The notes: generated by a model from the sequence alone, not told the origin. A stretch of DNA of 32,000 nucleotides from Candidatus Saccharimonadota bacterium (GCA_002421785.1 DIRZ01000002.1:150001-182000); one strand, 5' to 3'. Positions 6,791 to 29,721 are shown, counted from the first letter of the stretch. Numbers and translations: made by a program.

Positions 6791-8161
6791 ATGACCTCCA
6801 CAACCTCACAGCTGCAGGTGCAGCACATTAATATCAACGAACTGAAAGCAAGCGAGTTCAACCCGCGCACTTGGTCGGATCACCAGCTGGCGAAGCTCCG
6901 TGAAAGTATCGAGAAGTTCGGCGTCGTTGACCCGCTCATCGTCAATACTCACCCGTCGCGCAAGAATATCGTGATCGGTGGCAATATGCGGCTCCAGGTG
7001 CTTCAGGAAATGAAATACACTGATGTGCCTGTGGTCGAGCTTAATCTCACTGAACGCAAAGAGTGCGAGCTCAACCTCCGACTTAATAAAACCGGGGGCG
7101 ACTGGGACTACGCACTACTAAAAGAGTTCGATGAAGACCTGCTGGCCGATGTCGGCTTCGAGTCCGAAGAGCTCGATGACGTATTCGCTATCGAGGATAC
7201 CGAAGAAAAGGCTTCGTTCGACCTAAAAAAGGAGTTGAATAAGCTCGACATCAAGAAAATCACCGTTCAAAAGGGCGACGTCTACCAACTAGGCGACTCG
7301 CGTCTAATGTGCGGCGACTCCACTATCGAAGCCGACTTCGACAAGCTGATGAACGGTGAAAAAGCCGATATGTGCATGACTGACGAACCATATATCCTCG
7401 ACTACCTACATGCCAAGCGCGGCGGCAAACCAGTTAAAGGCTTCGGCGCCAAGCGTGACCGCATCTATCTCGAAACTGAAACTTTACCAGATAACTTCAT
7501 CGAACTGTGGATGGCAAATGTCGCCAAGCACGCCAAACCAGACTTCAGTATTATCTCGTACGAAAACTGGAAAAACCTGCGCGAAATGTGGAATGCCATG
7601 GAAAAGTACTGGAAGGTCAAGAATATGATTGTCTGGCACTTACCAAATCGACATCAGGGTTTTTCATCAAAGTATAAGTTCTTCTCCAAACACGACATTG
7701 CTGTCGTTGGCGGCTCGGGTGATGTGCCATACAACACCGACGAAGAAGAGGGTCCGTTACAGGAAATGTACGAAACTGCCCTATTCGCCATCTCTGGCAA
7801 ACCGCAGTGGGAAGGCTACGAAAAAGGCAAGAAATACATGCCGACCGACTTCATCGAGTTCAATGCCGATGACCTCAAAGGCTCCGGCCAGGGTGTAGTA
7901 TTCGGTACAAAGCCACTAGACATCCTCATTCCCTATATCAAGGTCCTAACGCGACGTGGTGACCTCGTAGTGGAGCCTTTCGGCGGGTCGGGCAGTACAC
8001 TCATCGCATCGATCAAACTTAATCGTCGCTGCTACATCATGGAAAAGGTACCGACCTATGCCGAAGTGATCATGCGGCGCTGGGAAAAAGAAACCGGCTT
8101 GAAGCGCAAGCTGATCGTGCGAGGTAGTGATGACGAAGTTCAGCCGAGCGTACAGGAGTAA
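6791..8161 (+). CDS. ParB-like N-terminal domain fused to a beta-class DNA methyltransferase (copy 1)
   Basis: RBS GAAAGGAAG precedes the ATG. N-terminus has a ParB-type segment (NPRTWSD..FGVVDPLIV..IVIGGNMRLQ). Motif IV variant MTDEPY comes before motif I VVEPFGGSGSTLIA, which is the beta-class order. By eye roughly 60% identical to the 20225-21562 product. Confidence 0.85.
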   Translation: MTSTTSQLQVQHININELKASEFNPRTWSDHQLAKLRESIEKFGVVDPLIVNTHPSRKNIVIGGNMRLQVLQEMKYTDVPVVELNLTERKECELNLRLNKTGGDWDYALLKEFDEDLLADVGFESEELDDVFAIEDTEEKASFDLKKELNKLDIKKITVQKGDVYQLGDSRLMCGDSTIEADFDKLMNGEKADMCMTDEPYILDYLHAKRGGKPVKGFGAKRDRIYLETETLPDNFIELWMANVAKHAKPDFSIISYENWKNLREMWNAMEKYWKVKNMIVWHLPNRHQGFSSKYKFFSKHDIAVVGGSGDVPYNTDEEEGPLQEMYETALFAISGKPQWEGYEKGKKYMPTDFIEFNADDLKGSGQGVVFGTKPLDILIPYIKVLTRRGDLVVEPFGGSGSTLIASIKLNRRCYIMEKVPTYAEVIMRRWEKETGLKRKLIVRGSDDEVQPSVQE

Positions 8162-10049: not shown

Positions 10050-10078
10050 TAGACTTTACCTCTGTTACGCGGTATGTT
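10050..10078 (+). promoter_or_regulatory. conserved promoter-like motif TAGACT-N17-TATGTT (site 2, recombinase 1)
   Basis: CTAGACTTtacctctgttacGCGGTATGTTGTTGCTTGC. The -10-like box ends 10 nt before ATG 10089, implying a near-leaderless mRNA. Confidence 0.45.
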
Positions 10079-10088
10079 GTTGCTTGCA

Positions 10089-11378
10089 ATGGAAGCACAA
10101 GTACCTCAACTAAAATACTGTCTCTACGCACGAAAATCATCAGAGTCCGATGAACGTCAGGCGATGAGCATTGACTCACAGCTAGCCGAGATGCGAGCCC
10201 TCGCAGTAAACGAAGGATTAAACGTCGTCTGCGAACTACAAGAAAGCCACTCGGCGAAAGATTCAGGAAAGCGCCCCGTGTATAACCAAATGCTCGCAGG
10301 AATAGCTAATGATGAATATAACGCCGTACTCACCTGGGCCCCAGACCGCCTCAGCCGAAACGCTGGCGACTTAGGCTCAGTCGTAGACTTAATGGATCAA
10401 CATAAGCTGCTCCACATACGCACCTACTCGCAAACGTTCACCAACAGCCCGAATGAAAAGTTCTTACTCATGATCCTGTGCTCGCAGGCAAAACTCGAGA
10501 ACGACAACAAAAGCATCAATGTGAAACGCGGCATCCGAACAAAATGTGAAATGGGCTGGCGACCTGGTACCGCTCCACTCGGCTATATAAACAGATCGTT
10601 CGGCGGAGTAACCGACATCATCCCCGACCCAGATCGTTCTGATATCATCACCGAAATGTTTCATAAGGCAGCTCAGGGCTGGAGCGGCAGGAGGCTAAAG
10701 GCCTGGCTTGATGAGCAAGGCATTACGACCAGAAGTGGACGAACCGTGCCAGTGAGCAGTGTCCTCGCGATGCTTATAAACCCCTTCTACTACGGTGAGT
10801 TCCAGTACCCCGAAGGTCCAGGAAATCCATGGTACAAAGGAGCGCATAAACCACTCATTTCCAAGGAGTTGTGGGATGAAGTACAGCAGACACGTGGAGT
10901 AAATAAAGGCGTGTGGGGATCGAAGCAGTTTGCCTTCCGCGGTCTACTTAAATGCGGTCGATGCGGCGCCGAGGTAACGGCACAGGAAAAGATAAAGCTA
11001 CTCAAGAAAAAAGGTGTGCACAAAAGGTTCGTCTACTATAACTGCACCCGCAAAATTGATCCAAATTGTAAAGAGAAATATATAAACGAAGATGTATTAT
11101 GTGAGCTACTCGAACCGCTAATTGAAAAACAGGTCAAGAAGATCCGCGTAACCCCTAAACTCCAAGCGAAGATAGACCGTCACTACGCCGTCGCTCAAAA
11201 TATTCTGCGCCAATACGGAGTCGAACGGCCGCCCGCAACGCCACTCGTTGAATACTCGAGATATGTACTGCGGAGCAGTAGCGAAACAGAGAAAACCGCC
11301 TTCGCCAATGGGATCATGAATAAGATAGCCGTAAGGAATGGTGAATTAAAAATCGCCCATGAACAGACCGATCCGTAG
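10089..11378 (+). CDS. large serine recombinase (copy 1)
   Basis: Catalytic region KYCLYARKSSESDERQAMSIDSQ, then LTWAPDRLSRN, a recombinase domain and a zinc ribbon (CGRCGAE..YYNCTRK..C). I chose ATG 10089 over ATG 10074 by homology with copy 2, which starts MLDNNTQSLKYCLYARKSS. Confidence 0.9.
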   Translation: MEAQVPQLKYCLYARKSSESDERQAMSIDSQLAEMRALAVNEGLNVVCELQESHSAKDSGKRPVYNQMLAGIANDEYNAVLTWAPDRLSRNAGDLGSVVDLMDQHKLLHIRTYSQTFTNSPNEKFLLMILCSQAKLENDNKSINVKRGIRTKCEMGWRPGTAPLGYINRSFGGVTDIIPDPDRSDIITEMFHKAAQGWSGRRLKAWLDEQGITTRSGRTVPVSSVLAMLINPFYYGEFQYPEGPGNPWYKGAHKPLISKELWDEVQQTRGVNKGVWGSKQFAFRGLLKCGRCGAEVTAQEKIKLLKKKGVHKRFVYYNCTRKIDPNCKEKYINEDVLCELLEPLIEKQVKKIRVTPKLQAKIDRHYAVAQNILRQYGVERPPATPLVEYSRYVLRSSSETEKTAFANGIMNKIAVRNGELKIAHEQTDP

Positions 11379-15701: not shown

Positions 15702-16895
15702 TCATAGTATTATGTCGGTTCCGTCGGGTGCTTTAAGCTTCCACGGACCACTATCACTCTTTGGCGTATCTGGTTTCTTCATTTTCCCAGCCTTTATATC
15801 CCGCTCTACAAGCTTTTTCAGATCTTCTTCGCGCTCGTAGGCTCGCAGGCGTCCATTTAAATACCCGAGTCGATACGAAATACCATTACTCATGAGTCGC
15901 CAGTTGGTATCCTGAAGCGCTTTTTCTACTGTTTTCTTAAGGGTCTTTTCACTATCTCGGTCGTCACGATTACTCTTTCCATCAAGGCAGTTAAATCCCA
16001 CGAATACGTCTTTACCCATTTCTGGCTTATCTAAACTGAATTCGATATAACCGGCCTTTTCAAGCGCAGGAGCAAGTATAGTATTCAACTCTGCGATCTT
16101 TGGCTTTTTCATTTCTTTCATGGCATCGTAAAGATATTTATTGTCCTCCTTCTCTTTGAACTCTTTACCAAGTCTAGCCATTTCTTGGAAATCGTGGCGC
16201 ATTTTGAATAGGCGGTCGCGGAACTCCGTATCATGCAGGCAATAATGCGCACGATCCTTGTCAAAATCAGGATCGGGTTTTTTCTCCTTGCTCATTAAGT
16301 CCATTTTATCCTTGAAGCTATGTTTACATGATGCGCACGTATATGTGATCGTGATAGCTTTTTTGGTTTTCGTTGTTTTATGTGTTTCTTCCGACTGGCA
16401 TTTTGGACATACAGTTGGTTTAACTTTCCACACCGTGCAATCTTCCCAAAAGGCGCTGTTCTTATCGCAATGAGGACAGCGCAACATGAATAACACTTCT
16501 TCTGAATCATCAATTTCGTATGTTTCACCGCGATGCATCAACGATTTGTCGATAATTCGGAGTCCCTGTTTGCCACAATGATGACACGAAGGCTCTTCTG
16601 CAAGTCGTGCTGATGATATCTGCTCGTCCTTTGCCCGATCCCTAGCAATCCATTCCTGGATTTTGCTGTCTCGTTTTTCATAGCGATCCAGCAGCTCATT
16701 GCCCACGGTTTCCATATAGAAAACATTCAGGAGAAAGGCGTTGCCAGGTTTATCAACCTTTTCTCCTTTAGGGAGTTTGCTTTCGAATTCAGAGTAAAAG
16801 TTATCGTAATGGCTCATACCGCGACGAGCAGACTCAACGGTTAGTCGATCATAAAGATTCTCGTAGTGCTGGCGTTCTTTGAGATGAGTGTACAT
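15702..16895 (-). CDS. 397-aa protein with four CxxC pairs (two predicted zinc ribbons)
   Basis: CHHCGKQG..CPHCDKNS..CPKCQSE..CASCKHS in the central region. RBS AGAGGG precedes ATG 16895. First gene after the tRNA pair. Confidence 0.65.
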   Translation of the reverse strand: MYTHLKERQHYENLYDRLTVESARRGMSHYDNFYSEFESKLPKGEKVDKPGNAFLLNVFYMETVGNELLDRYEKRDSKIQEWIARDRAKDEQISSARLAEEPSCHHCGKQGLRIIDKSLMHRGETYEIDDSEEVLFMLRCPHCDKNSAFWEDCTVWKVKPTVCPKCQSEETHKTTKTKKAITITYTCASCKHSFKDKMDLMSKEKKPDPDFDKDRAHYCLHDTEFRDRLFKMRHDFQEMARLGKEFKEKEDNKYLYDAMKEMKKPKIAELNTILAPALEKAGYIEFSLDKPEMGKDVFVGFNCLDGKSNRDDRDSEKTLKKTVEKALQDTNWRLMSNGISYRLGYLNGRLRAYEREEDLKKLVERDIKAGKMKKPDTPKSDSGPWKLKAPDGTDIIL

Positions 16896-16933: not shown

Positions 16934-17018
16934 TCTAAGGAGGGGGATTCGAACCCCCGGAGGCTTTCACCTCGCCTGCCCCTCAGACAGGTGCCATCGA
17001 CCACTCGGCCACCCTTCC
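16934..17018 (-). tRNA. type-II tRNA-Leu(GAG) with mismatched top of the acceptor stem
   Basis: Minus strand: GGAAGGG TG GCC..GGC, anticodon arm CCTGT-CTGAGGG-GCAGG, long variable arm GAGG-TGAAAG-CCTC, T arm GGGGG-TTCGAAT-CCCCC, then TCCTTAG-A. Pairs 1:72 (G/G) and 2:71 (G/A) do not form. No encoded CCA. Confidence 0.65.
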
Positions 17019-20121: not shown

Positions 20122-20190
20122 AAACGTTTTGCGTGCCGATCAAATAGCAACAATGCTGTTTGACTGACATACAAAACGTTTTTTGTTTTG
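20122..20190 (+). terminator. long hairpin (10-bp arms AAACGTTTTG / CAAAACGTTT, 40-nt loop) followed by a T-rich run
   Basis: Arms at 20122-20131 and 20172-20181, followed by ttttgttttg. Lies between the ImmA gene and ParB-methylase 2. May be a terminator or a regulatory structure. Confidence 0.35.
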
Positions 20191-20224
20191 TCGCATACAG
20201 CTCCAAAGAAAGGAGTGTCTTGTC

Positions 20225-21562
20225 ATGCCGAAAGCCAAACAAGACCTACAAATACAAACCGTAAAAATTAGCGATCTAAACCCAGCGCCGTACAATCCAC
20301 GCAAGTGGAGTGAGGAAGCAATCGCACAACTGACCGATAGTGTCCGACAGTTCGGTATGGTCGATCCACTACTTGTCAACGGCGCCGAGGGTCGCCGAAA
20401 CATTGTTATCGGCGGCCATTTCCGCCTCAAAGTAGCAAAAGATCTCGGCATTACCGAGTTACCTGTCGTATATGTAGCTATCCCAGAGCTTGAGCGAGAG
20501 AAAGAGCTTAACCTTCGTCTCAATAAAAATCTTGGCGAATGGGATATTGATCTACTAAAGGAGTTTGACGAAGCCATTCTTTCCGATATCGGCTTCAGTA
20601 GTGAAGACCTGGATGGTGTATTTGAGGTCGATGATACACCCGAAAACTTTGACCTCAAGAAAGAGCTTGAGAGGCTTGATATTCAAGTAGAAGCAAAGAA
20701 GGGTGATATTTACCAGCTTGGTAATTCTCGCCTCATGGTCGGTGATAGCACTATACCCGAGGACTTTACTAAGCTAATGAATGGTGAACTAGGAGACCTT
20801 TGCCTATGCGATCCTCCGTATCGTCTCAGCTATATGAAAGGTGGTATTCGACATGGCGAGCCTGTGACGGGCTTCGGAGCGAAACGTAACCGTCGCTACC
20901 TCGAAACTGAGGAGCTATCAGACGACTTTACTACTAAATGGATGCAAAATGTCGCTAACCACGCAAAGGAAGATTTCAGTATCATTGTGTACGAGGCGTG
21001 GCATAACCTCCGGGAGATTTGGTCATGCCTCGAGGCGCACTGGAAGGTAAAAAATATGCTTGTTTGGCACTTGCCTAACCGTCACCAAGGATTTGCTGCA
21101 AAGTATAAGTTCTTCAGTAAATACGATATTGCCATGGTCGGTGCTAGCGGTACGGTTGAATACAACCACGGAGAGGAACCAGATGGCTTACAAGAAGAGT
21201 ATGAGGCTGCCCTTTATGCTATATCTGGCAAACCCCAATGGGAGGGATATAAAAAGGGTAAGGACAAGAGGTTTATGCCAACTGACCATATCGAGTTTAA
21301 TGCCGATGACGAAAAACACTCAGGCCAAAACATTATATTCGGAACCAAACCGATCGAGATCCTACTCCCCTACATAAAGGTACTAACTAGGCGCGGAGAT
21401 CTAGTTGTAGAACCTTTTTGTGGTAGCGGCTCGACTCTAATTGCTGCGACTAAATTGCATCGTCGATGCTACGTCATGGAGAAGTCTCCAGTATATGCAG
21501 AAGTTGCCATGAAGCGATGGGAAAAATTAACTGGCCAGAAGAGGGTGAAAATAGATGAATAA
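20225..21562 (+). CDS. ParB-like N-terminal domain fused to a beta-class DNA methyltransferase (copy 2)
   Basis: RBS AAAGGAG lies 8 nt before ATG 20225, so I reject the track start at 20183. Motifs NPRKWSE..FGMVDPLLV..IVIGGHFRLK, canonical motif IV LCDPPY, motif I VVEPFCGSGSTLIA. Confidence 0.88.
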   Translation: MPKAKQDLQIQTVKISDLNPAPYNPRKWSEEAIAQLTDSVRQFGMVDPLLVNGAEGRRNIVIGGHFRLKVAKDLGITELPVVYVAIPELEREKELNLRLNKNLGEWDIDLLKEFDEAILSDIGFSSEDLDGVFEVDDTPENFDLKKELERLDIQVEAKKGDIYQLGNSRLMVGDSTIPEDFTKLMNGELGDLCLCDPPYRLSYMKGGIRHGEPVTGFGAKRNRRYLETEELSDDFTTKWMQNVANHAKEDFSIIVYEAWHNLREIWSCLEAHWKVKNMLVWHLPNRHQGFAAKYKFFSKYDIAMVGASGTVEYNHGEEPDGLQEEYEAALYAISGKPQWEGYKKGKDKRFMPTDHIEFNADDEKHSGQNIIFGTKPIEILLPYIKVLTRRGDLVVEPFCGSGSTLIAATKLHRRCYVMEKSPVYAEVAMKRWEKLTGQKRVKIDE

Positions 21563-22206: not shown

Positions 22207-22797
22207 ATGCAAGAAAATAATCAACCGAATCAAGTGCACAATCATCAGCTACAACCTGTGAAGAAAAGAGGTTGGTATAAAACCTGGTGGGGAATCCTAC
22301 TAATTATACTAGGTGCCATTACTGCGATACCTGTAATAATGCTATTCATCGTTGTAGGGATCGTAATGTTTACACAAGACAACGATACAAATCCGTCTAC
22401 CAAACAGAAAGATGAAACTAGTTTGAGCCAGTCCGTTGACGAATCAAAGATTCCATATGAAGGAGTTGAGATATGGAAAATTGGTGATAACGGCCTCGGC
22501 ACAACCATCGTTATTGATCCTAAATACGACAATAGCGAGTCACTCAAGCGGCTCGGATCGGAGCTCAATAATGAAAACCAGTCGAGACAATTTGCGATGA
22601 ATTACATCTACACAGACAAGACTTCAGCCTTATATAGAAAAGAAAGCTTCTGCTCACCTGGACAGCCTGCATCAATTCGTCAGCACAAAAAAAGCTGGGC
22701 AGCTCTCTACCAAAAAGATAATTCAGGCGCAAGAATGACGATATTTACAGATCGCTCTTGCGACCCGAATGCCGCTTCAGAAACTATCGAATATTAA
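22207..22797 (+). CDS. single-pass membrane protein (variable slot of module 2)
   Basis: Strong RBS GAAGGAG precedes ATG 22207. TM segment WWGILLIILGAITAIPVIMLFIVVGIVMF followed by a soluble domain. No motif. Confidence 0.65.
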   Translation: MQENNQPNQVHNHQLQPVKKRGWYKTWWGILLIILGAITAIPVIMLFIVVGIVMFTQDNDTNPSTKQKDETSLSQSVDESKIPYEGVEIWKIGDNGLGTTIVIDPKYDNSESLKRLGSELNNENQSRQFAMNYIYTDKTSALYRKESFCSPGQPASIRQHKKSWAALYQKDNSGARMTIFTDRSCDPNAASETIEY

Positions 22798-22800
22798 GGC

Positions 22801-22828
22801 TAGACTTTGTAAACCGTTGCGGTATTGT
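22801..22828 (+). promoter_or_regulatory. conserved promoter-like motif TAGACT-N16-TATTGT (site 3, recombinase 2)
   Basis: CTAGACTTtgtaaaccgttGCGGTATTGTTGTCCTTGC. ATG 22842 lies 13 nt after the -10-like box. Confidence 0.45.
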
Positions 22829-22841
22829 TGTCCTTGCAGTC

Positions 22842-24125
22842 ATGCTGGACAACAATACTCAATCACTAAAATATTGCCTGTACGCTCGGAAAAGCTCCGA
22901 GAGCGACGAGCGTCAGGCAATGAGTATTGATTCACAATTAGCGGAAATGAGATCCCTCGCTGAAAACGAGGGATTAGATGTTGTGTGCGAACTACAAGAG
23001 AGCCATTCAGCAAAAGACTCTGGAAAGCGTCCTGTATACAACAAGATGTTAGCCGGTATCGCTAATGGCGAATATAACGCGATTCTCACCTGGGCACCAG
23101 ATCGTTTGAGTCGAAACGCCGGAGACCTTGGGTCTGTTGTCGACCTTATGGACCAGCATAAGCTACTCCACATACGTACATATTCCCAAACATTCACCAA
23201 TAGTCCAAATGAGAAATTCCTCCTCATGATTCTCTGCTCACAAGCCAAGCTTGAAAACGATAACAAAAGCATCAATGTAAAACGCGGCATACGCACAAAA
23301 TGCGAGATGGGCTGGCGACCTGGTGTTGCTCCACTTGGCTACATGAACCGAGCATTCGGAGGTATCAACGATATCATTATCGATCCCGAACGTGCCGACC
23401 TCATCAGAGAAGCATTCCATAAGGCAGGATACGAACGATGGAGCGGGCGCAGAATTAAAGCTTGGCTCGACGAAAAAGGATTTACTAATCGATCAGGAAA
23501 ACCGATAAGTATCAGTCAAGTGCTAGTGATACTAAACACCCCCTTTTACTACGGAAGGTTCCAGTATCCAGAGGCACCTGATGCACCGTGGTATGATGGC
23601 GCACATAAACCACTCATCTCCAAAGAATTATTTGACCAGGTACAAGAGACTCGTGGCGTTAACAAGGGTGTATGGAGGTCAAAAACCTTTGCCTTTCGTG
23701 GTTTGCTCAAATGCGGACAATGCGGTGCTGACATTACCGCACAGGATAAATTCAAAACACTAAAAAAGTCCGGTGAGGTAAAGCGATTCGTCTACTATAA
23801 CTGTACGAGACGGAAAGATCCGAATTGCACTGAGAAATATATAAACGAAGACAAGCTGTGCGAACTTTTGAAAGACTTTATTGAAACACATCATTCCGAA
23901 ATCAAGATCGGTGACAAATTGCGTGCAAAGGTAGATAAGCATATGTATGTCACCAACACTTTGCTCACCCATTACAATATCGATCGGGAGTTGAGTGACC
24001 CATTCGTAGAATACGCGAGATATGTGCTCATAAGTGGGACTGAGAACGAAAGAACAAGTTTAGCAGCTGGAATAGAGACAACCATCCAGATCAAGCATGG
24101 CATTCTCGAATTTTGGCCTAAGTAA
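22842..24125 (+). CDS. large serine recombinase (copy 2)
   Basis: MLDNNTQSLKYCLYARKSSESDERQAMSIDSQ.., LTWAPDRLSRN, zinc ribbon CGQCGAD..YYNCTRR..C. The N-terminal ~150 aa are nearly identical to copy 1 at protein level, while the DNA differs at many synonymous sites. Confidence 0.9.
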   Translation: MLDNNTQSLKYCLYARKSSESDERQAMSIDSQLAEMRSLAENEGLDVVCELQESHSAKDSGKRPVYNKMLAGIANGEYNAILTWAPDRLSRNAGDLGSVVDLMDQHKLLHIRTYSQTFTNSPNEKFLLMILCSQAKLENDNKSINVKRGIRTKCEMGWRPGVAPLGYMNRAFGGINDIIIDPERADLIREAFHKAGYERWSGRRIKAWLDEKGFTNRSGKPISISQVLVILNTPFYYGRFQYPEAPDAPWYDGAHKPLISKELFDQVQETRGVNKGVWRSKTFAFRGLLKCGQCGADITAQDKFKTLKKSGEVKRFVYYNCTRRKDPNCTEKYINEDKLCELLKDFIETHHSEIKIGDKLRAKVDKHMYVTNTLLTHYNIDRELSDPFVEYARYVLISGTENERTSLAAGIETTIQIKHGILEFWPK

Positions 24126-24942: not shown

Positions 24943-24977
24943 TGGCTCCGGCGACTGGATTCGAACCAGGCGCCTAT
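24943..24977 (-). pseudogene. displaced 3' fragment of a tRNA-Asn-like gene (variable loop, T arm, acceptor 3' strand, G73, CCA)
   Basis: Minus strand reads AGGCGCCTGG-TTCGAAT-CCAGT-CGCCGGA-G-CCA. The matching 5' strand TCCGGCG is absent upstream. Similar but not identical to the 3' half of the intact gene at 29007-29047. Confidence 0.75.
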
Positions 24978-25049
24978 ACCACCATTTTCCTGGTTCACCA
25001 TACTATAGCTTACATCTGCCATTAATCATAATAATCTGTGTATTACTGG

Positions 25050-25778
25050 CTAAAACAGGCTCAGCCAGTAATCTGACCATCGATAGAATAGCAACATAAA
25101 GATAACAGTATAAGTTATAACGATAAGCTCATACTTGTAGCTGAACAGTTTATTCAGTTTTTCGCCGAGGTTTATGTATTTGTGCCGTATGCAGTATGCG
25201 GTCACCATCCATAGCAGCGCGAACGTCACCAGCCACACCAGCATACAGTACAAGCATAATTTTCCGATTACAAAGACACCCTGGTAAAACAGCCACGTAC
25301 AGAATCCGGCGCCAAAGACGATGCCGCCGAGGAGCGTGCGCCACAAGGCCCTATGCAGTTTTACCGCCCCGGCAAGAATCGTCATGCCGGCTGCGAAAAC
25401 CGCGGTATAACCGAATATACCTATGAACGAATTGGCAAAGCCGAAAGCACTCGCCTGCGGGCTGGCGATGATGGGCGAACAGGCCACGATCGGACTCAAG
25501 CTGCAGCTTGGATCGTGAGCCGGCTGAGTCAGTATCTCTATCTTTTCGATGGATAGGATGATCGCCGCACTCACCCCAATGACAGCGAGAACCGTCATCC
25601 ATCGTGCCAATAAGATCTCCGGTTTCAGGTTCTGCCCGCGCTGGATAATCGCCGTCAGTAACACAAGAGCTACGACGGCGAGATATACATACTCTACTTT
25701 GCTACGAGCCACAAATACGGCCACAAACAAATAGACTATCGGCAAGAGAACAAAGTATTTACGTAGTAAAGTAATCAT
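25050..25778 (-). CDS. vitamin K epoxide reductase (VKOR) family membrane protein
   Basis: Polytopic membrane protein with loop cysteines CSLSPIVAC and the CxxC motif GKLCLYCMLVW. ATG 25778 lies 1 nt after the upstream stop. The track start at 25799 is an alternative. Confidence 0.8.
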   Translation of the reverse strand: MITLLRKYFVLLPIVYLFVAVFVARSKVEYVYLAVVALVLLTAIIQRGQNLKPEILLARWMTVLAVIGVSAAIILSIEKIEILTQPAHDPSCSLSPIVACSPIIASPQASAFGFANSFIGIFGYTAVFAAGMTILAGAVKLHRALWRTLLGGIVFGAGFCTWLFYQGVFVIGKLCLYCMLVWLVTFALLWMVTAYCIRHKYINLGEKLNKLFSYKYELIVITYTVIFMLLFYRWSDYWLSLF

Positions 25779-25779
25779 C

Positions 25780-26067
25780 TTAGAAATCGAATAGATCACC
25801 CAAAAAGGACTCTTTGCGCTTTTTGCGAGGGTACCCTTGGTCGTAGTTCACCGGCCGGCCATGTTTATCGTATTGTGGTGGGTAGCCGGAGTTCTGATAC
25901 GGCTCCGGCGCAGGTGATGACGTGGTCTGAGAGACCGCCCCCCGCTCAATGATCTTATCCAGCTCACCTCGGTCCAACCAGACACCACGGCACTTGGGAC
26001 AATAATCTATCTCGACGCCTTGGCGGTCAGTCATTACCAGTTCAGTATTGTCTATGGGGCATTGCAT
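25780..26067 (-). CDS. zinc-ribbon (TFIIB-type zf, COG3809-like) protein
   Basis: MQCPIDNTELV..IDYCPKCRGVWLDRGELDKII is the typical family signature, followed by a Pro/Gly/Tyr-rich tail. Confidence 0.8.
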   Translation of the reverse strand: MQCPIDNTELVMTDRQGVEIDYCPKCRGVWLDRGELDKIIERGAVSQTTSSPAPEPYQNSGYPPQYDKHGRPVNYDQGYPRKKRKESFLGDLFDF

Positions 26068-26079
26068 ATGTCATCTCCT

Positions 26080-27990
26080 TTACTTATTCACTATAGCAAC
26101 TTCATTGGCTCCGGCATTAAACAGACGCAGGCCGTTGAGGACGACCAGGACAGCCATAACCGCGTCTGCCGCCACGGCCAAGCTTAGACCGATCACCCCG
26201 GCGATGCCGAGTACCAGGATAACACCCTTGACTATGATTGATCCGTAGACATTCTGACGGACAACCCTGAAAGTTTGCTGGCCGACATCCAGTAGGTATG
26301 GAATAGTGCCTATAGCGTCATTCATCAGTGTTACGTCCGCCGTTTCTATCGCTACGTCCGAGCCGCCACCCCCCATGGCGATACCCACATCCGCTCGAGC
26401 CAAGCTCGGCGCGTCGTTCACACCATCGCCCACCATGGCTACTCGCTGATACCGGGCTTGCAGCTTGTCGATAAGTTCTGCTTTTTGCTCAGGCAGCAGT
26501 GCTCCGTACGCCTCGCTGATACCGACTTTTTCCGCGATATAATTCGCTGCCCGCTGATTATCTCCGGTCAGCATCACCGGCGTGACCCGTAGCTTATTCA
26601 GCGCGTCTATGACACCCTTTGAATCGTTACGCAATTCGTCGGTGATACCTATGATACCGATGACCTTTTTGCCCTCACTGACAAGCACGGCCGTCATCCC
26701 CATGCCTTCCAGTCGTTCCACTTCCGGCAATACATGTTCGCACGTCTCGGCGCTAACGCCGATATGCTGAAGATTGCCGATAGCGTGCTCCTTGTCGCCG
26801 CAGACCATACAATTGGCGTTGCCGCCACGACCGGCTACGTTTTTGAACTTGTCCATTTTGTGCGGTTTAATGCCCTTTTGTTTGGCATAATCTTCTATCG
26901 CCTTAGCTAGCGGATGCGAAGAGAATTTTTCAATTCCCGCAGCATCTCCTATGACGTCCTCTTCCGTAGCGTCATGCAGCAGCACTACTTCAGCCACCAC
27001 AGGGGTTCCGACGGTCAGTGTCTTTGTCTTGTCGAAAGCGATTGCTCTGGTCTTGCTCAAGACTTCCAGGAAACGGCCTCCCTTGATGAGCACACCCCTA
27101 CGCGATGCACCGCCGATTGCCGCCGCCACGGCGACAGGCGCCGATACCACTAGCGCATCCGGACAAGCGAGCACCAGCAGGATAAGTGCTTTTGTAAACC
27201 AGTCGCTGAACGGTTCGCCGAAAAAGACCGGCGGCACGACAGCTACCAGCAGGGCCAGCCCGATCGCTGCCGGTATATAATAACTCGCAAACTTATCCAA
27301 AAATTCCTGCATCTCTGGCCTGGATTTTTGAGCCTCAGAAATTAATGTGACAATTTTTTGCAGCGTACTGTTAGCGGCGGTTTTGGTGACTTTTACCTCC
27401 AGATAGCCGCTCTGGTTTAAGGTACCGGCGTAGACGGCTTCACCTTTATATTTCTCTTTTGGCACGCTCTCGCCGGTAATAGTCGCCTCGTCGACCGATG
27501 ACTCGCCGTCGACTACCACGCCGTCCAGCGGCACCATGTCACCGGGACGGACTTTGACTATTTCACCTTCCTTGACTTTCTCGACCGGCACTTCACGGCC
27601 ATCTTGTAAGCGGGCGATTTTCGGCGCGGATTTGAGAAGCGCCGCCACGGCCTTTTGCGAGCGGGCTTCGCCGAATTCCTCGAAGGCTTCAGCCAGTGCA
27701 AAGAAGAACATCACGGCAGCAGCCTCGGCGAATTGGCCAAGGTACAGCGCGCCAAGTGCGGCAATCGTTACCAGCAGGCTGATGGATATTTTACGTTTCA
27801 ATAGTTTTCGGACAGCCGATATTGCAACAGGAGTACCTCCCGCAGCCAGCGACACCAGGTACAGTATTTCCGCCCCGGGCAACTTAAACAGGCTGCACGC
27901 CAAACCAGCAACAAAGCTGACGGCGGCAGTAGCGGTCAAAGCCTTGTTCATGCGGTTTGATTCGTTTTCTTCGGCATGGTTATCGCTCAT
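26080..27990 (-). CDS. P1B-type heavy-metal-translocating ATPase with atypical motifs and no N-terminal metal-binding domain
   Basis: TGES (ITGESVP), MLTGDN and MVGDGVNDAPSLA are present. The phosphorylation motif reads FDKTKTLT instead of DKTGT. The TM metal motif reads ACPDAL instead of CPC/CPH/SPC. Confidence 0.85.
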   Translation of the reverse strand: MSDNHAEENESNRMNKALTATAAVSFVAGLACSLFKLPGAEILYLVSLAAGGTPVAISAVRKLLKRKISISLLVTIAALGALYLGQFAEAAAVMFFFALAEAFEEFGEARSQKAVAALLKSAPKIARLQDGREVPVEKVKEGEIVKVRPGDMVPLDGVVVDGESSVDEATITGESVPKEKYKGEAVYAGTLNQSGYLEVKVTKTAANSTLQKIVTLISEAQKSRPEMQEFLDKFASYYIPAAIGLALLVAVVPPVFFGEPFSDWFTKALILLVLACPDALVVSAPVAVAAAIGGASRRGVLIKGGRFLEVLSKTRAIAFDKTKTLTVGTPVVAEVVLLHDATEEDVIGDAAGIEKFSSHPLAKAIEDYAKQKGIKPHKMDKFKNVAGRGGNANCMVCGDKEHAIGNLQHIGVSAETCEHVLPEVERLEGMGMTAVLVSEGKKVIGIIGITDELRNDSKGVIDALNKLRVTPVMLTGDNQRAANYIAEKVGISEAYGALLPEQKAELIDKLQARYQRVAMVGDGVNDAPSLARADVGIAMGGGGSDVAIETADVTLMNDAIGTIPYLLDVGQQTFRVVRQNVYGSIIVKGVILVLGIAGVIGLSLAVAADAVMAVLVVLNGLRLFNAGANEVAIVNK

Positions 27991-27994
27991 GAAA

Positions 27995-28279
27995 TTAGTT
28001 GCCTCCCCCTGTCAAAAACTGCAGCGGATTTGCGATAACCTGTTGCCACAGGGCATTAATGAAATCAAGTGCATAATTCCATAGTGATTTGATGATATTA
28101 CCGACACTTTGCCCAATCCCGCTATCGGCCTGTCCGAGCAAGGCGCCGATGACAGCTATGATGATCGAGCCAATTATCAAAAGTATAACAAGCAGTACAA
28201 ACCCGACGAGCAGAGCTGCTATAACCAGTTTTTTCTTATTTATACGGCTTAATTTATCAAATTTGTATCCGTGGCTCAT
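27995..28279 (-). CDS. 94-aa membrane protein
   Basis: One long hydrophobic segment (LVIAALLVGFVLLVILLIIGSIIIAVIGALL). Tightly spaced between the ArsR and ATPase genes. Confidence 0.55.
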   Translation of the reverse strand: MSHGYKFDKLSRINKKKLVIAALLVGFVLLVILLIIGSIIIAVIGALLGQADSGIGQSVGNIIKSLWNYALDFINALWQQVIANPLQFLTGGGN

Positions 28280-28296
28280 AAGTATACCTTTCTTTT

Positions 28297-28623
28297 TTAT
28301 TTATGTTCGCCGCTCTTGATGTGATCGGCTTGTGTAAACGCGTGTTCGATGAACTGAAGCACATGATCATTCTCAGCACTATAGAATATTTTCGTACCGG
28401 CACGTCTGACGCGCACCATGTGAGACATGCGTAGTTTTGCGAGATGCTGTGAGACTACAGCAGGTTTTACCCCTACGTCTTCTGCAAGCTCACCCACCGA
28501 ATGCTCACCGTGCAAGAGTGCCCATAATATTTTTAAGCGCGTCGGGTCGCTCAGCAGTTTAAATATCCCGGTAGCTATATCAAGGCGTGCATTTGATAAT
28601 TCTTTGCGTATATGCGCAGACAT
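28297..28623 (-). CDS. ArsR/SmtB-family metalloregulator
   Basis: LLSDPTRLKILWALLHGEHSVGELAEDVGVKPAVVSQHLAKLR is a winged-HTH signature. His/Asp/Glu-rich C-terminus (NDHVLQFIEHAFTQADH). I chose ATG 28623 because the predicted promoter lies inside the longer track ORF. Confidence 0.85.
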   Translation of the reverse strand: MSAHIRKELSNARLDIATGIFKLLSDPTRLKILWALLHGEHSVGELAEDVGVKPAVVSQHLAKLRMSHMVRVRRAGTKIFYSAENDHVLQFIEHAFTQADHIKSGEHK

Positions 28624-28629
28624 GCATAT

Positions 28630-28659
28630 ACTATAGCAAAATGCTCCTCTTATTCGCAA
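28630..28659 (-). promoter_or_regulatory. TTGCGA-N18-TATAGT promoter, giving a leaderless or near-leaderless arsR-like mRNA
   Basis: Minus strand reads TTGCGAataagaggagcattttgcTATAGTatatgcATG. Confidence 0.4.
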
Positions 28660-28740
28660 GGTTAGTATTGTCATTGGCACATCCTATCAGGACAGATGAG
28701 CAGAACTGAACCCTTATTAGGTACTAATAAGCGTGTAGTA

Positions 28741-29006
28741 CATCAGACATAAAAGTCCTGCTGAGTGTTTACCTGACTTAAATCAGGGACAGGTCTGGGG
28801 AACAGGTCCGAGTTTTGGCTGCCTGTTCCTTCAGGACGAGAGAGGCCGAGTTCGAACTGACTTACAGAGGTGCCTACGAAAGAACCGCCCTTTCGGACGG
28901 TTCCAACATTTTGTACTTTGTTATCAGCACATTGTTTCTTGGCTGAGTAAGGAGAGAAGTTACGGTCAGGTCTAGGACCTTGGTCTGCGCTTTTCTCTGC
29001 TTGCTC
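28741..29006 (-). repeat. tRNA-Asn-linked non-coding module, copy 3 (directly downstream of the intact tRNA-Asn)
   Basis: Begins right after the encoded CCA with GAGCAAGCAG. Contains the conserved hairpin and the blocks shared with copies 1 and 2. Confidence 0.8.
28877..28904 (-). terminator. terminator-like hairpin in module copy 3
   Basis: Minus strand reads GAACCGTCC-GAAA-GGGCGGTTC followed by TTTCGTAGG, a weak U-tract. Confidence 0.4.
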
Positions 29007-29315
29007 TGGCTCCGGCAGCTGGGCTCGAACCAGCGACCTAATCGTTACACATAACCACATGTTTTCACATATGTGTGGACTATCTCATCATCCATTTTCA
29101 GGATGCGGGGCGCTATTTGAAAGAGTATTGCTTGAGGACTCACTTTCTAGTCTCTGAACCTTCCTAGCGTTATAACCTCTAGCTAGGCTTGGCTGCGGAT
29201 TCCCGTATCACAATTGTGACGTAGGCTTCCCGCAATTCACCCCGTTGACACCATACAGTTACCTGTATGGGCTGCCTTTTGACAGCGATCCGCTCTACCA
29301 CTGAGCTATGCCGGA
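29007..29315 (-). tRNA. tRNA-Asn(GUU) interrupted by a group I intron (exon 1 29315-29282, exon 2 29047-29007)
   Basis: Joined exons: TCCGGCA TA GCTC-AGTGGTA-GAGC G GATCG-CTGT|TAA-CGATT AGGTC GCTGG-TTCGAGC-CCAGC TGCCGGA G CCA, 75 nt. The architecture closely parallels E. coli tRNA-Asn (U1-A72, G73, loop CUGUUAA). Confidence 0.85.
29048..29281 (-). ncRNA. group I intron (IC3-like, 234 nt) in the anticodon loop
   Basis: The 5' exon ends in U and the intron ends in G. P1: exon GCUGU pairs with intron GCAGC (29275-29271), with U.G at the splice site. P2 hairpin CCATACAG-GTAA-CTGTATGG. Core elements: P GAATTGCGGGAAG (29238-29226), Q GAATCCGCAGCC (29202-29191), R GGTTCAGAGACTAGA (29160-29146), S GAGATAGTCC (29086-29077). 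Confidence 0.85.
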
Positions 29316-29365
29316 ATAAGGTGCTTCTGCGCGCAAGAACGCGCAGATACAGATGCTATTTTATA

Positions 29366-29686
29366 TCATTTTCCCACCGGTGTAAACACTCTGACTCCGA
29401 GTTCAATTTCCCGGTGACAATTCGCGCACACCAATATACATTTATCGAGTTCGGCTTTAATTTTTTCCCATGACCTCGTATAGCCCTTAGCACCTATACT
29501 AAATTCCTTCGTCGCTGGGTCAAGATGGTGAAAGTCGAGCACACCAGGGTGCTCAGAATAACCACATAAGACACACCTACCGCCTTTGTACTCAATTGAT
29601 TTTATCTTGATAGACCGTCTACGCTTCGCAACCGCTGCGATAAGGTACTCGCGGCGGTCCGCATACGTTCGCTTTTCGTTAGCCAT
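29366..29686 (-). CDS. HNH endonuclease
   Basis: CVLCGYSEHPGVLDFHHLDP....LVCANCHREIE is an HNH / zinc-finger signature. Start ATG 29686 (MANEKRTY) or GTG 29704. Confidence 0.8.
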   Translation of the reverse strand: MANEKRTYADRREYLIAAVAKRRRSIKIKSIEYKGGRCVLCGYSEHPGVLDFHHLDPATKEFSIGAKGYTRSWEKIKAELDKCILVCANCHREIELGVRVFTPVGK

Positions 29687-29721
29687 ATCCTGATGGTATA
29701 GCACTGTGGTGTAACAGTCAA

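Follow-up and report, generated by a model that had tools for sequence, protein, structure and literature searches.

A free-standing HNH endonuclease gene beside a tRNA-Asn gene split by a group I intron in Saccharibacteria: a candidate case of collaborative homing

Introduction

Collaborative homing is known from two phage systems (PMC3984707). F-CphI is encoded beside the intron of cyanophage psbA, and mobE is found with the intron of T4 nrdB (Zeng 2009 and Bonocora & Shub 2009, as cited in PMC3984707; PMC2790892). Both concern phage protein-coding genes, and in both cleavage was shown experimentally. Here we describe a locus of similar layout in a bacterial chromosome, at a tRNA gene, and known from sequence alone. 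It lies in a 32,000-nt stretch of the genome of a Candidatus Saccharimonadota bacterium (GCA_002421785.1, DIRZ01000002.1:150001-182000; the whole stretch is called the window below, and positions are counted from its first nucleotide), where a tRNA-Asn(GUU) gene is split by a group I intron without an open reading frame (ORF) and is preceded by a gene for an HNH endonuclease. A further difference from the phage systems is that other lineages carry this nuclease clade within introns of the same family, at the identical site.

Two other nucleases offer parallels at tRNA genes. I-SspI (I-Ssp6803I) belongs to the PD-(D/E)XK family rather than to the HNH nucleases and is encoded within its intron, whereas the HNH gene of the window lies outside the split gene. 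Like the nuclease proposed here, it is associated with a group I intron in a tRNA anticodon loop, that of Synechocystis tRNA-fMet (Bonocora & Shub 2001, cited in PMC3984707), and it is reported there to have specificity for the anticodon region within the tRNA gene. T4 SegB (PMC2330249), which is also a free-standing homing endonuclease, acts on a region of tRNA genes, as proposed here, but it is a GIY-YIG enzyme of a phage tRNA gene cluster, and no intron is involved.

The closest relatives of the intron itself are found in a preprint catalogue of 5292 split tRNA genes, which extends the four classical classes (Leu.3Ug, Arg.5Ug, fMet.2Ug and Ile2.5Ug) to 21 (Williams 2020, bioRxiv 10.1101/2020.01.27.920355). 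Among its seeds is Pam37.Asn.4Ug, whose intron follows loop nucleotide 4, with U at -1 and an omega-G. Its seeds also hold Tyr.4Ug and Asp.4Ug, so that in three of the four tRNAs with GUN anticodons the intron follows an identical CUGU, the exon half of P1. For Asn.4Ug, the preprint describes neither flanking nor embedded nuclease genes; it does say that introns above ~400 bp may carry genes. The initial annotation of the window had not counted tRNA-Asn among the known hosts. That does not hold, as the catalogue lists the host at this exact site and we found it in 73 species-level genomes; tRNA-Asn is thus not a new host but is known as a preprint catalogue entry. In the literature searched, including that on Patescibacteria and Saccharibacteria, we found no peer-reviewed description of a group I intron in tRNA-Asn, only the Williams preprint. 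The 'group I introns' of 22-49 nt reported for other cyanobacterial tRNAs (Mohanta 2017) are too short for group I ribozymes and were set aside as irrelevant. What is new here is the HNH neighbour and its embedded relatives.

Results

The split gene encodes tRNA-Asn(GUU)

Joining the two exons gives a 75-nt tRNA with the split point between U35 and U36. This is the reading of the initial annotation, and both the coordinates and a comparison of homologs bear it out. Default ARAGORN and the Rfam tRNA model overlooked the tRNA at this locus. With introns allowed, ARAGORN assembled a 75-nt tRNA around the 234-nt intron and called it Thr (UGU). The rule that the exon ends in U and the intron in G fits two placements here: CU/...G/UGUAA, which gives Thr (UGU), and CUGU/...G/UAA, which gives Asn (GUU).

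To compare the two placements we used homologous loci from a scan of one genome per species (GTDB), with a pattern made of the D arm, N6, CUGU, a short loop, GCAG and the P element. The scan required a P1 loop of 4-9 nt, so introns with an ORF in that loop were left out; it yielded 73 species-level genomes with an intron in tRNA-Asn, mostly Patescibacteria. The Asn placement keeps the terminal G in all 65 homologous loci with placeable exons. A U.G wobble at U35 is present in 64/64 homologous introns, and the spliced products of all 64 are called tRNA-Asn(gtt), with U1-A72, G73 and 7/7 acceptor pairs. For these three reasons the Asn(GUU) placement is, by comparison of homologs, the correct one. 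The alternative host, a tRNA-Thr(UGU) with the intron between U33 and U34, has behind it the intron mode of ARAGORN (-i). Since the intron ends in GUG, this mode returns Thr(tgt) for the window and for about half the homologs. Under the Thr placement, 13 homologs are left with no terminal G and the splice site has a U-A pair instead of U.G, and the tRNA body (U1-A72 and G73) matches the 120 uninterrupted tRNA-Asn genes listed from a metagenome scan, which searched for the uninterrupted junction with Saccharibacteria-type exons and found at least 120 loci. We give the Thr reading practically no credence.

Across the homologs (L048-L120), the label that ARAGORN in intron mode gave to the split gene was Thr, Tyr, Leu, Ala or Asp. 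The label depends on a slip of 1-2 nt in intron placement, an annotation hazard for genomes of the candidate phyla radiation (CPR). CPR tRNAs are often interrupted by group I introns (Lui et al. 2021), and the tRNAscan-SE 2.0 paper states that the program was not designed to detect group I introns in tRNAs. A 105-aa ORF at 28743-29060 (minus strand), annotated as a gene by JGI and ENA in L121 and L124, begins within helix P9 of the intron and extends across the tRNA 3' exon. This is almost certainly a false gene call that arose from failure to detect the split tRNA.

As the initial annotation reasonably proposed, queuosine modification of G34 would have to follow splicing, because U33-G34-U35 are locked in P1 of the precursor. 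Bacterial tRNA-guanine transglycosylase recognises UGU.

The intron retains an intact group I core

The covariance search suggested in the initial annotation returned a significant match, as Intron_gpI (RF00028) aligned over its whole length to 29291-29056 (minus) with 75.2 bits against a gathering score of 50 (E 1.5e-17). Each structural feature that the annotation had read from the sequence was also found, always on the minus strand: a P1 with U.G, a terminal G, a P2 capped by a GNRA loop (GUAA) and the four core elements. P1 consists of five exon-guide pairs, including U35.G, plus one intron pair, and this last pair, between intron nucleotide 1 and the guide, covaries across homologs (CG 29, AU 19, GC 15, GU 1). 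P5/P5a holds a receptor-like internal loop, CCUACG...UACGG, which we interpret as a possible variant of the 11-nt receptor. After P9 comes an 8-nt tail whose last nucleotide is the omega-G at 29048, present in 65/65 homologs.

We aligned 64 distinct introns of 195-288 nt, drew helices P1-P9 and an extra hairpin on the window sequence and projected them onto the alignment. Standard pairs occupied 92.7% of cells, compared with 37-41% when the partners were slid by 1-3 columns. Changes on both sides of a pair, that is, compensatory changes, were seen at 43 of the 66 pairs, and none of 500 shuffles reached the observed values. Every pair covaries in P2, P5a, P6a, P8 and P9, while P4 and P7 are invariant (P7 has 6 pairs and is 99.7% paired). 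An unconstrained fold retrieved most helices, with a z score of -3.1 for its minimum free energy.

Of 94 highly conserved columns, the window intron departs from the family at only two, which both lie in the linker J2/3, and the 309-nt locus is 100% identical across four independent assemblies, including NCBI GCA_002280625.1. The intron thus appears intact, nothing in its sequence suggests decay, and the feature looks real and functional. A different view would be that the split gene is a decaying pseudogene whose intron no longer splices and that another tRNA-Asn serves translation. Uninterrupted tRNA-Asn alleles do occur in relatives, and our evidence covers the window, so that a second tRNA-Asn elsewhere in the genome is possible, which counts against a functional split gene. 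Against decay, Saccharibacteria genomes are ~1 Mb and usually have one gene per tRNA species. On the same side stand the intact conserved core positions and the full set of 66 modelled pairs, with both deviations confined to a linker; the identity of the locus in the four assemblies and of its exons to those of working tRNA-Asn genes; the persistence of the split arrangement across 73 species under compensatory evolution; and the retention of the native promoter and leader. We consider decay very improbable.

Intron-bearing and intronless alleles occupy the same locus

A survey of tRNA-Asn genes in related genomes, which the initial annotation had called for, found the intron at some orthologous loci and not at others. 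Among the 120 intronless loci listed, 13 carry a tRNA identical at 75/75 positions to the predicted spliced product of the window. In several of the 13, the upstream LexA and beta-lactamase-like genes of the window recur, and the downstream genes encode ArsR/ATPase or serine recombinases. The gene order of LexA-like gene, beta-lactamase-like gene, 106-aa ORF and split tRNA-Asn recurs in metagenome-assembled genomes (MAGs) of Saccharimonadales at 54-84% protein identity; these include Ca. Saccharimonas aalborgensis (L079) and L116, whose introns are the most similar to that of the window (~80%). On this basis the window belongs to a Saccharimonadales bacterium (Patescibacteria/CPR). Intronless orthologs (L157, L236, L189) have the same promoter-like boxes and leader hairpin as the window.

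The intron is therefore polymorphic: at one and the same locus, some lineages have it and others do not. Measured by the identity of neighbouring proteins, intron-bearing and intronless loci are interleaved at similar distances, which implies repeated intron loss, horizontal gain, or both. The exons are identical between intron-bearing and intronless alleles, and therefore only the intron distinguishes a carrier from a potential target.

In the Logan assemblies, five of six short HNH-bearing contigs (L122, L126, L127, L129, L130) end 77-84 nt past the HNH gene, within the tRNA 5' exon or where it ends (window 29282-29289). Breaks of this kind would be expected where a sample contains several tRNA-Asn alleles that differ in their intron or lack one, and these alleles break the assembly graph.

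A free-standing HNH gene lies upstream of the tRNA

PHROG 2255 matches the 106-aa ORF upstream of the tRNA at E 5.6e-31, and nine residues are invariant in 30 homologs (C38, C41, H53, H54, C83, C87, N89, C90, H91; CxxC...HH...CxNCH). By profile and motif, this ORF is an HNH endonuclease; public annotations leave it unnamed. Two results speak against the assignment. Pfam HNH (PF01844) scores 15.2 bits, below its cutoff of 21.4, the family being divergent from the Pfam seed, and an AlphaFold2 model (mean predicted local distance difference test, pLDDT, 88) has HNH nucleases as its best fold matches, but at Foldseek E values of at least 0.1, which are not significant. A sequence search of the PDB with the protein gave chance-level matches only.

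The gene has its own promoter-like motif, and its last codons (VRVFT...) overlap the native -35 region of the tRNA promoter. We therefore regard it as a separate insertion ~110 nt upstream of the intron site, between the stop of the previous gene and the tRNA promoter. Two candidate relics were rejected. A 5' exon left upstream of the HNH gene by escape through exon duplication was sought in the 35 nt between the previous stop and the HNH start, with no similarity found. A CTGT...GCAG hairpin in the spacer between the HNH gene and the tRNA was considered as a relic P1; the same promoter and leader hairpin precede tRNA-Asn genes that have neither intron nor HNH gene.

HNH homologs occur beside and within tRNA-Asn introns

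We searched all ORFs with a profile and recorded homologs within 1.5 kb of the tRNA. An HNH homolog was found beside 11 of the 73 intron-bearing loci and beside none of the 120 intronless loci listed. Ten of the 11 are upstream and share the strand of the tRNA; the gap is -6 to 69 nt in nine of them and 278 nt in the tenth (L112). The remaining homolog, that of L106, is encoded on the opposite strand, 22 nt downstream and thus on the other side of the tRNA, which makes the tRNA gene the common factor. The difference held among loci with matched exons (5/29 versus 0/120 listed, p=2e-4) and among LexA-syntenic loci (7/13 versus 0/54, p=2e-6), in statistics that ignore phylogeny.

The association also holds in the reverse direction. 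From more than 2000 homologs in the protein database we sampled eight (64-85% identity), and all eight were tied to a group I intron in tRNA-Asn. Two (P0003, P0022) are free-standing and lie ~40 nt upstream of a tRNA gene whose intron measures 226 nt. The other six (P0033, P0056, P0105, P0073, P0048, P0087) are encoded within tRNA-Asn introns of 519-618 nt, on contigs of Harrisonbacteria, Wolfebacteria and Paceibacterota type among others. The embedded ORF starts 31-36 nt past the splice site, in the P1 loop, and its end falls in the guide, P2 and P3. Two IMG/VR contigs classed as viral, L265 (= L022) and L270, carry a tRNA-Asn with an HNH-containing intron of 544 and 566 nt, respectively, and L265 also has a gene for a serine recombinase. 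Both are probably either pieces of CPR chromosomes that contain integrated elements or phages with a split tRNA.

In the window, then, a free-standing nuclease gene adjoins a gene with an ORF-less intron, and the intron-free orthologous sites are without the nuclease. By analogy with the phage systems, this arrangement looks like collaborative homing.

A competing account is that two selfish elements, the HNH gene and the intron, inserted independently and share a locus, the nuclease targeting its own intergenic site, as in intronless homing, or having a phage-type role, and that their co-occurrence reflects linkage and shared ancestry within Saccharimonadales. Several observations lend weight to it and weigh against homing. 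The association tests ignore phylogeny, and the intron-bearing and intronless sets come from different collections. Most intron-bearing loci (~60/73) have no HNH gene nearby. Of 80 homologs on phage contigs (47-66% identity), 76 have no Asn-type intron nearby, so the wider family is mostly not intron-associated, and the link therefore belongs to the CPR subclade and not to the whole HNH family. In a neighbour-joining tree of HNH proteins (94 columns), the free-standing copies form a single clade with 54% support, compatible with one insertion inherited vertically, and the tree does not resolve the order of the free-standing and embedded states. The nuclease could also target its own insertion site instead of the intron site. 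Independent insertion accounts less readily for the lack of an HNH gene at all 120 intronless loci listed, some of them from close relatives that match in both exons and synteny; for the same HNH clade within the tRNA-Asn intron of other phylum-level lineages, with 8/8 sampled homologs tied to the intron; and for L106, where an independently inserted copy lies across the tRNA from the usual position. We judge it unlikely, if still a serious competitor.

We consider it probable that the locus comprises a functional tRNA-Asn(GUU) gene with an ORF-less group I ribozyme, and that the neighbouring HNH protein is a free-standing homing endonuclease engaged in collaborative homing. A more specific version, in which the HNH protein recognises the intronless anticodon region, the intron shields the carrier, and the same clade is already embedded in other CPR lineages, we put forward tentatively.

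The intron belongs to class Asn.4Ug and has both IC3-like and divergent features

In host (Asn(gtt)), junction (CUGU/UAA), U-1 and omega-G, the window intron agrees with the Asn.4Ug definition and its Pam37 seed. The two also share an extra hairpin after P7 followed by AGCGCCC. Pam37 differs in its length (276 nt) and longer P2 region, and is ~59% identical to the window intron.

Some of the 73 loci are on contigs binned, by the labels as deposited, as Gammaproteobacteria, Omnitrophota, Planctomycetia, Bacillota or Chloroflexota; nine MAGs with the Asn intron carry the first of these labels (L061, L074, L083, L085, L089, L099, L101, L110, L118). L084, a 1.6-kb contig of an Anaerolineaceae MAG, has tRNA exons identical to those of the window and fragments of the HNH gene, and is probably a mis-binned Saccharibacteria contig. 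In L112 a run of N (2640-2900) covers most of the intron. A general P-Q-R pattern scan of viral contigs (46 matches) proved too unspecific and was not used.

The initial annotation had likened the intron to the IC3 introns of Azoarcus tRNA-Ile(CAU) and cyanobacterial tRNA-Leu(UAA). Like these, it is a small ORF-less ribozyme in a tRNA anticodon loop, with a P3-P8 core, a GNRA-capped P2 and a GAAA-capped P9. The likeness stands for the compact core without P5abc, the GNRA L2, the GAAA L9 and the receptor-like P5, all taken from sequence and alignment, with the tertiary contacts inferred. It does not extend to the host and position, as the IC3 introns follow loop nucleotide 5 or 3 and the window intron follows nucleotide 4; to the R element, GGUUCAGAGACUA in the window intron versus GGUGUAGAGACUA in the Azoarcus and cyanobacterial introns; or to the extra covarying hairpin between P7 and P3', which the Azoarcus and cyanobacterial seeds lack. 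Nor is sequence identity specific to IC3: pairwise identities to the Williams seeds were all 0.57-0.66, gave no discrimination between classes, did not single out IC3 and were rejected as a guide to the subgroup.

The loop of the extra hairpin is UGAGUCCUCAAGCAAUACU in the window; in most relatives that have the hairpin it is ~16 nt with the consensus UGAGCCUAACAAUAAU. The stem covaries within its subtype (GAAGG/CCUUC, GGAUG/CAUCC, GAGAG/CUCUC and others) and is 66.7% paired in the mixed alignment. Among relatives, the number of hairpins between P7 and P3' ranges from zero to two, and some CPR seeds of the Williams catalogue have an extra hairpin. Among Asn.4Ug introns, the region (alignment columns 213-271, window 29113-29147) shows at least four architectures: none, a short GGUGAGUACACC hairpin, a 5-bp hairpin with the loop UGAGCCUAACAAUAAU, and two hairpins. 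The conservation of this loop suggests a tertiary contact or a protein-binding site. In the Michel-Westhof scheme, P7.1/P7.2 is a trait of subgroup IA.

The tRNA 3' end anchors strain-variable islands

The initial annotation had also named this tRNA as the apparent anchor of stacked islands, and the window supports this for two layers (Table 1). A displaced remnant of the tRNA 3' end lies 4 kb beyond the live gene, and strains diverge there. L123, L124 and L125 are colinear with the window to exactly 24943, the CCA of the remnant, and continue with two other sequences; the window and L121 have a serine-recombinase element past 24943, which makes three alternative sequences in four assemblies. 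These comparisons point to the tRNA-Asn 3' end as an integration site for strain-variable islands. In the window, the live tRNA and the remnant are each followed by an identical 10-nt sequence (GAGCAAGCAG). Pfam annotation of island A (24975-29006) revealed no integrase or recombinase; the gene for a large serine recombinase (22758-24125) is in the next segment.

At several other loci, with and without the intron, tRNA-Asn likewise has serine recombinases nearby. Elsewhere in the window, genes at 6791-8161, 10074-11378, 20183-21562 and 22758-24125 (plus strand) fall into two modules that each pair a ParB-N/N6-N4 DNA methylase fusion with a large serine recombinase, which suggests two related integrative elements in tandem. 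A tRNA-Leu(GAG) at 16934-17018 (minus) scores 33.8 bits with the Rfam tRNA model. A 397-aa zinc-ribbon ORF (15702-16895, minus) lies directly downstream of it, with DNA of lower GC content beyond, and this region may be another island boundary.

Table 1 Features of the split tRNA-Asn locus and its surroundings in the window
Feature	Position	Strand	Evidence or remark
tRNA-Asn(GUU) 5' exon ending CUGU, 34 nt, nt 1-35 in standard numbering	29315-29282	minus	7/7 acceptor pairs with the 3' exon
Group I intron, ORF-less, 234 nt, class Asn.4Ug	29281-29048	minus	Rfam RF00028 and covariation
tRNA-Asn 3' exon, 41 nt: UAA..., T arm, acceptor strand, G73, encoded CCA	29047-29007	minus	
P, Q, R and S elements	29226-29238, 29191-29202, 29146-29160, 29077-29086	minus	strings quoted in the initial annotation located
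P1: exon GCUGU and intron C1 with guide GGCAGC, loop AAAA	29271-29286	minus	U35.G marks the 5' splice site
P2 hairpin, GUAA (GNRA) loop	29251-29270	minus	compensatory changes at 8/8 pairs
P3 5' strand, J3/4, P4, P5/P5a, P4 3' strand	29194-29244	minus	P3 5/7 pairs covarying, P4 invariant, P5a 5/5
P6/P6a	29158-29193	minus	P6a 6/6 pairs covarying
P7 5' strand (in R), pairing with 29077-29082 (in S)	29148-29154	minus	pseudoknot, guanosine-binding helix
Extra P7.1-like hairpin between P7 and P3', 5-bp stem, 19-nt loop	29119-29147	minus	stem covaries
P3 3' strand, P8, J8/7, P7 3' strand, P9 (GAAA loop)	29056-29112	minus	P8 5/5, P9 7/7 pairs covarying
Free-standing HNH endonuclease gene, 106 aa	29686-29366	minus	PHROG 2255; stop 50 nt upstream of tRNA
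Promoter-like site of HNH cassette, TTGACT-17-TACCAT	29693-29721	minus	TTGAC-N17-TGCTATACCAT conserved before free-standing copies
Promoter-like TTTACA-17-TAAAAT	29386-29358 (within 29316-29386)	minus	promoter scan, 10/12 matches
Leader hairpin	29347-29326 (within 29316-29386)	minus	
Island A, 4 kb, metal resistance	24975-29006	minus	between live tRNA 3' end and remnant
Island A: ArsR	28297-28680		Pfam
Island A: 94-aa ORF			Pfam
Island A: P-type ATPase	26080-27990		Pfam
Island A: Zn-ribbon protein			Pfam
Island A: VKOR	25050-25799		Pfam
Displaced tRNA-Asn 3'-end remnant: T arm, acceptor strand, G73, CCA	24943-24974	minus	23/27 nt identical to 29007-29033

Discussion

Self-splicing of the window intron is predicted, and the steps proposed here are inferred from the standard two-step guanosine mechanism of group I introns. 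In the primary transcript, exon nucleotides G31-U35 would pair with the guide GGCAGC to form P1, and an exogenous guanosine bound in P7 would attack after the U35.G wobble. The terminal G would then take the same P7 site and the exons would be ligated, giving the loop CUGUUAA. The anticodon stem may hold the exons together, as it is cited to do in Anabaena pre-tRNA (Zaug 1993, in PMC3984707).

For mobility, we propose that the HNH gene, expressed from its own promoter, would yield a nuclease that cuts intronless tRNA-Asn DNA, and that the intron would interrupt this target in the carrier genome. The identical exons mean that a target inside the tRNA gene could be protected in the carrier by the intron alone. 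Repair of a cut recipient would copy the intron and the nuclease gene together, which is collaborative (trans) homing. Elsewhere in the CPR, nucleases of this clade lie within the P1 loop of the tRNA-Asn intron and would make it a conventional mobile intron.

The intron also has consequences for annotation. Since standard tRNA finders miss the split gene or call it Thr, Tyr, Asp, Leu or Ala, CPR and Saccharibacteria genomes can seem to be without tRNA-Asn, and spurious ORFs are called over it. A missed tRNA-Asn bears on estimates of completeness and on claims about codon usage.

The arrangement of intron and nuclease matters more than the intron alone. How homing endonuclease genes came to reside in group I introns is an old question, for which the support has been two phage systems and one argument from sequence similarity. 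In public data, one HNH clade now presents three situations: it lies next to an intron that has no ORF, it lies within introns of the same family at that very site, and it is missing, along with the intron, from orthologous loci. With so many natural replicates, the direction of the transition and the target of the nuclease are directly testable. If our reading is true, this would be the first collaborative homing described in a cellular genome and at a tRNA gene, and the first nuclease-intron pair in which both stages are seen.

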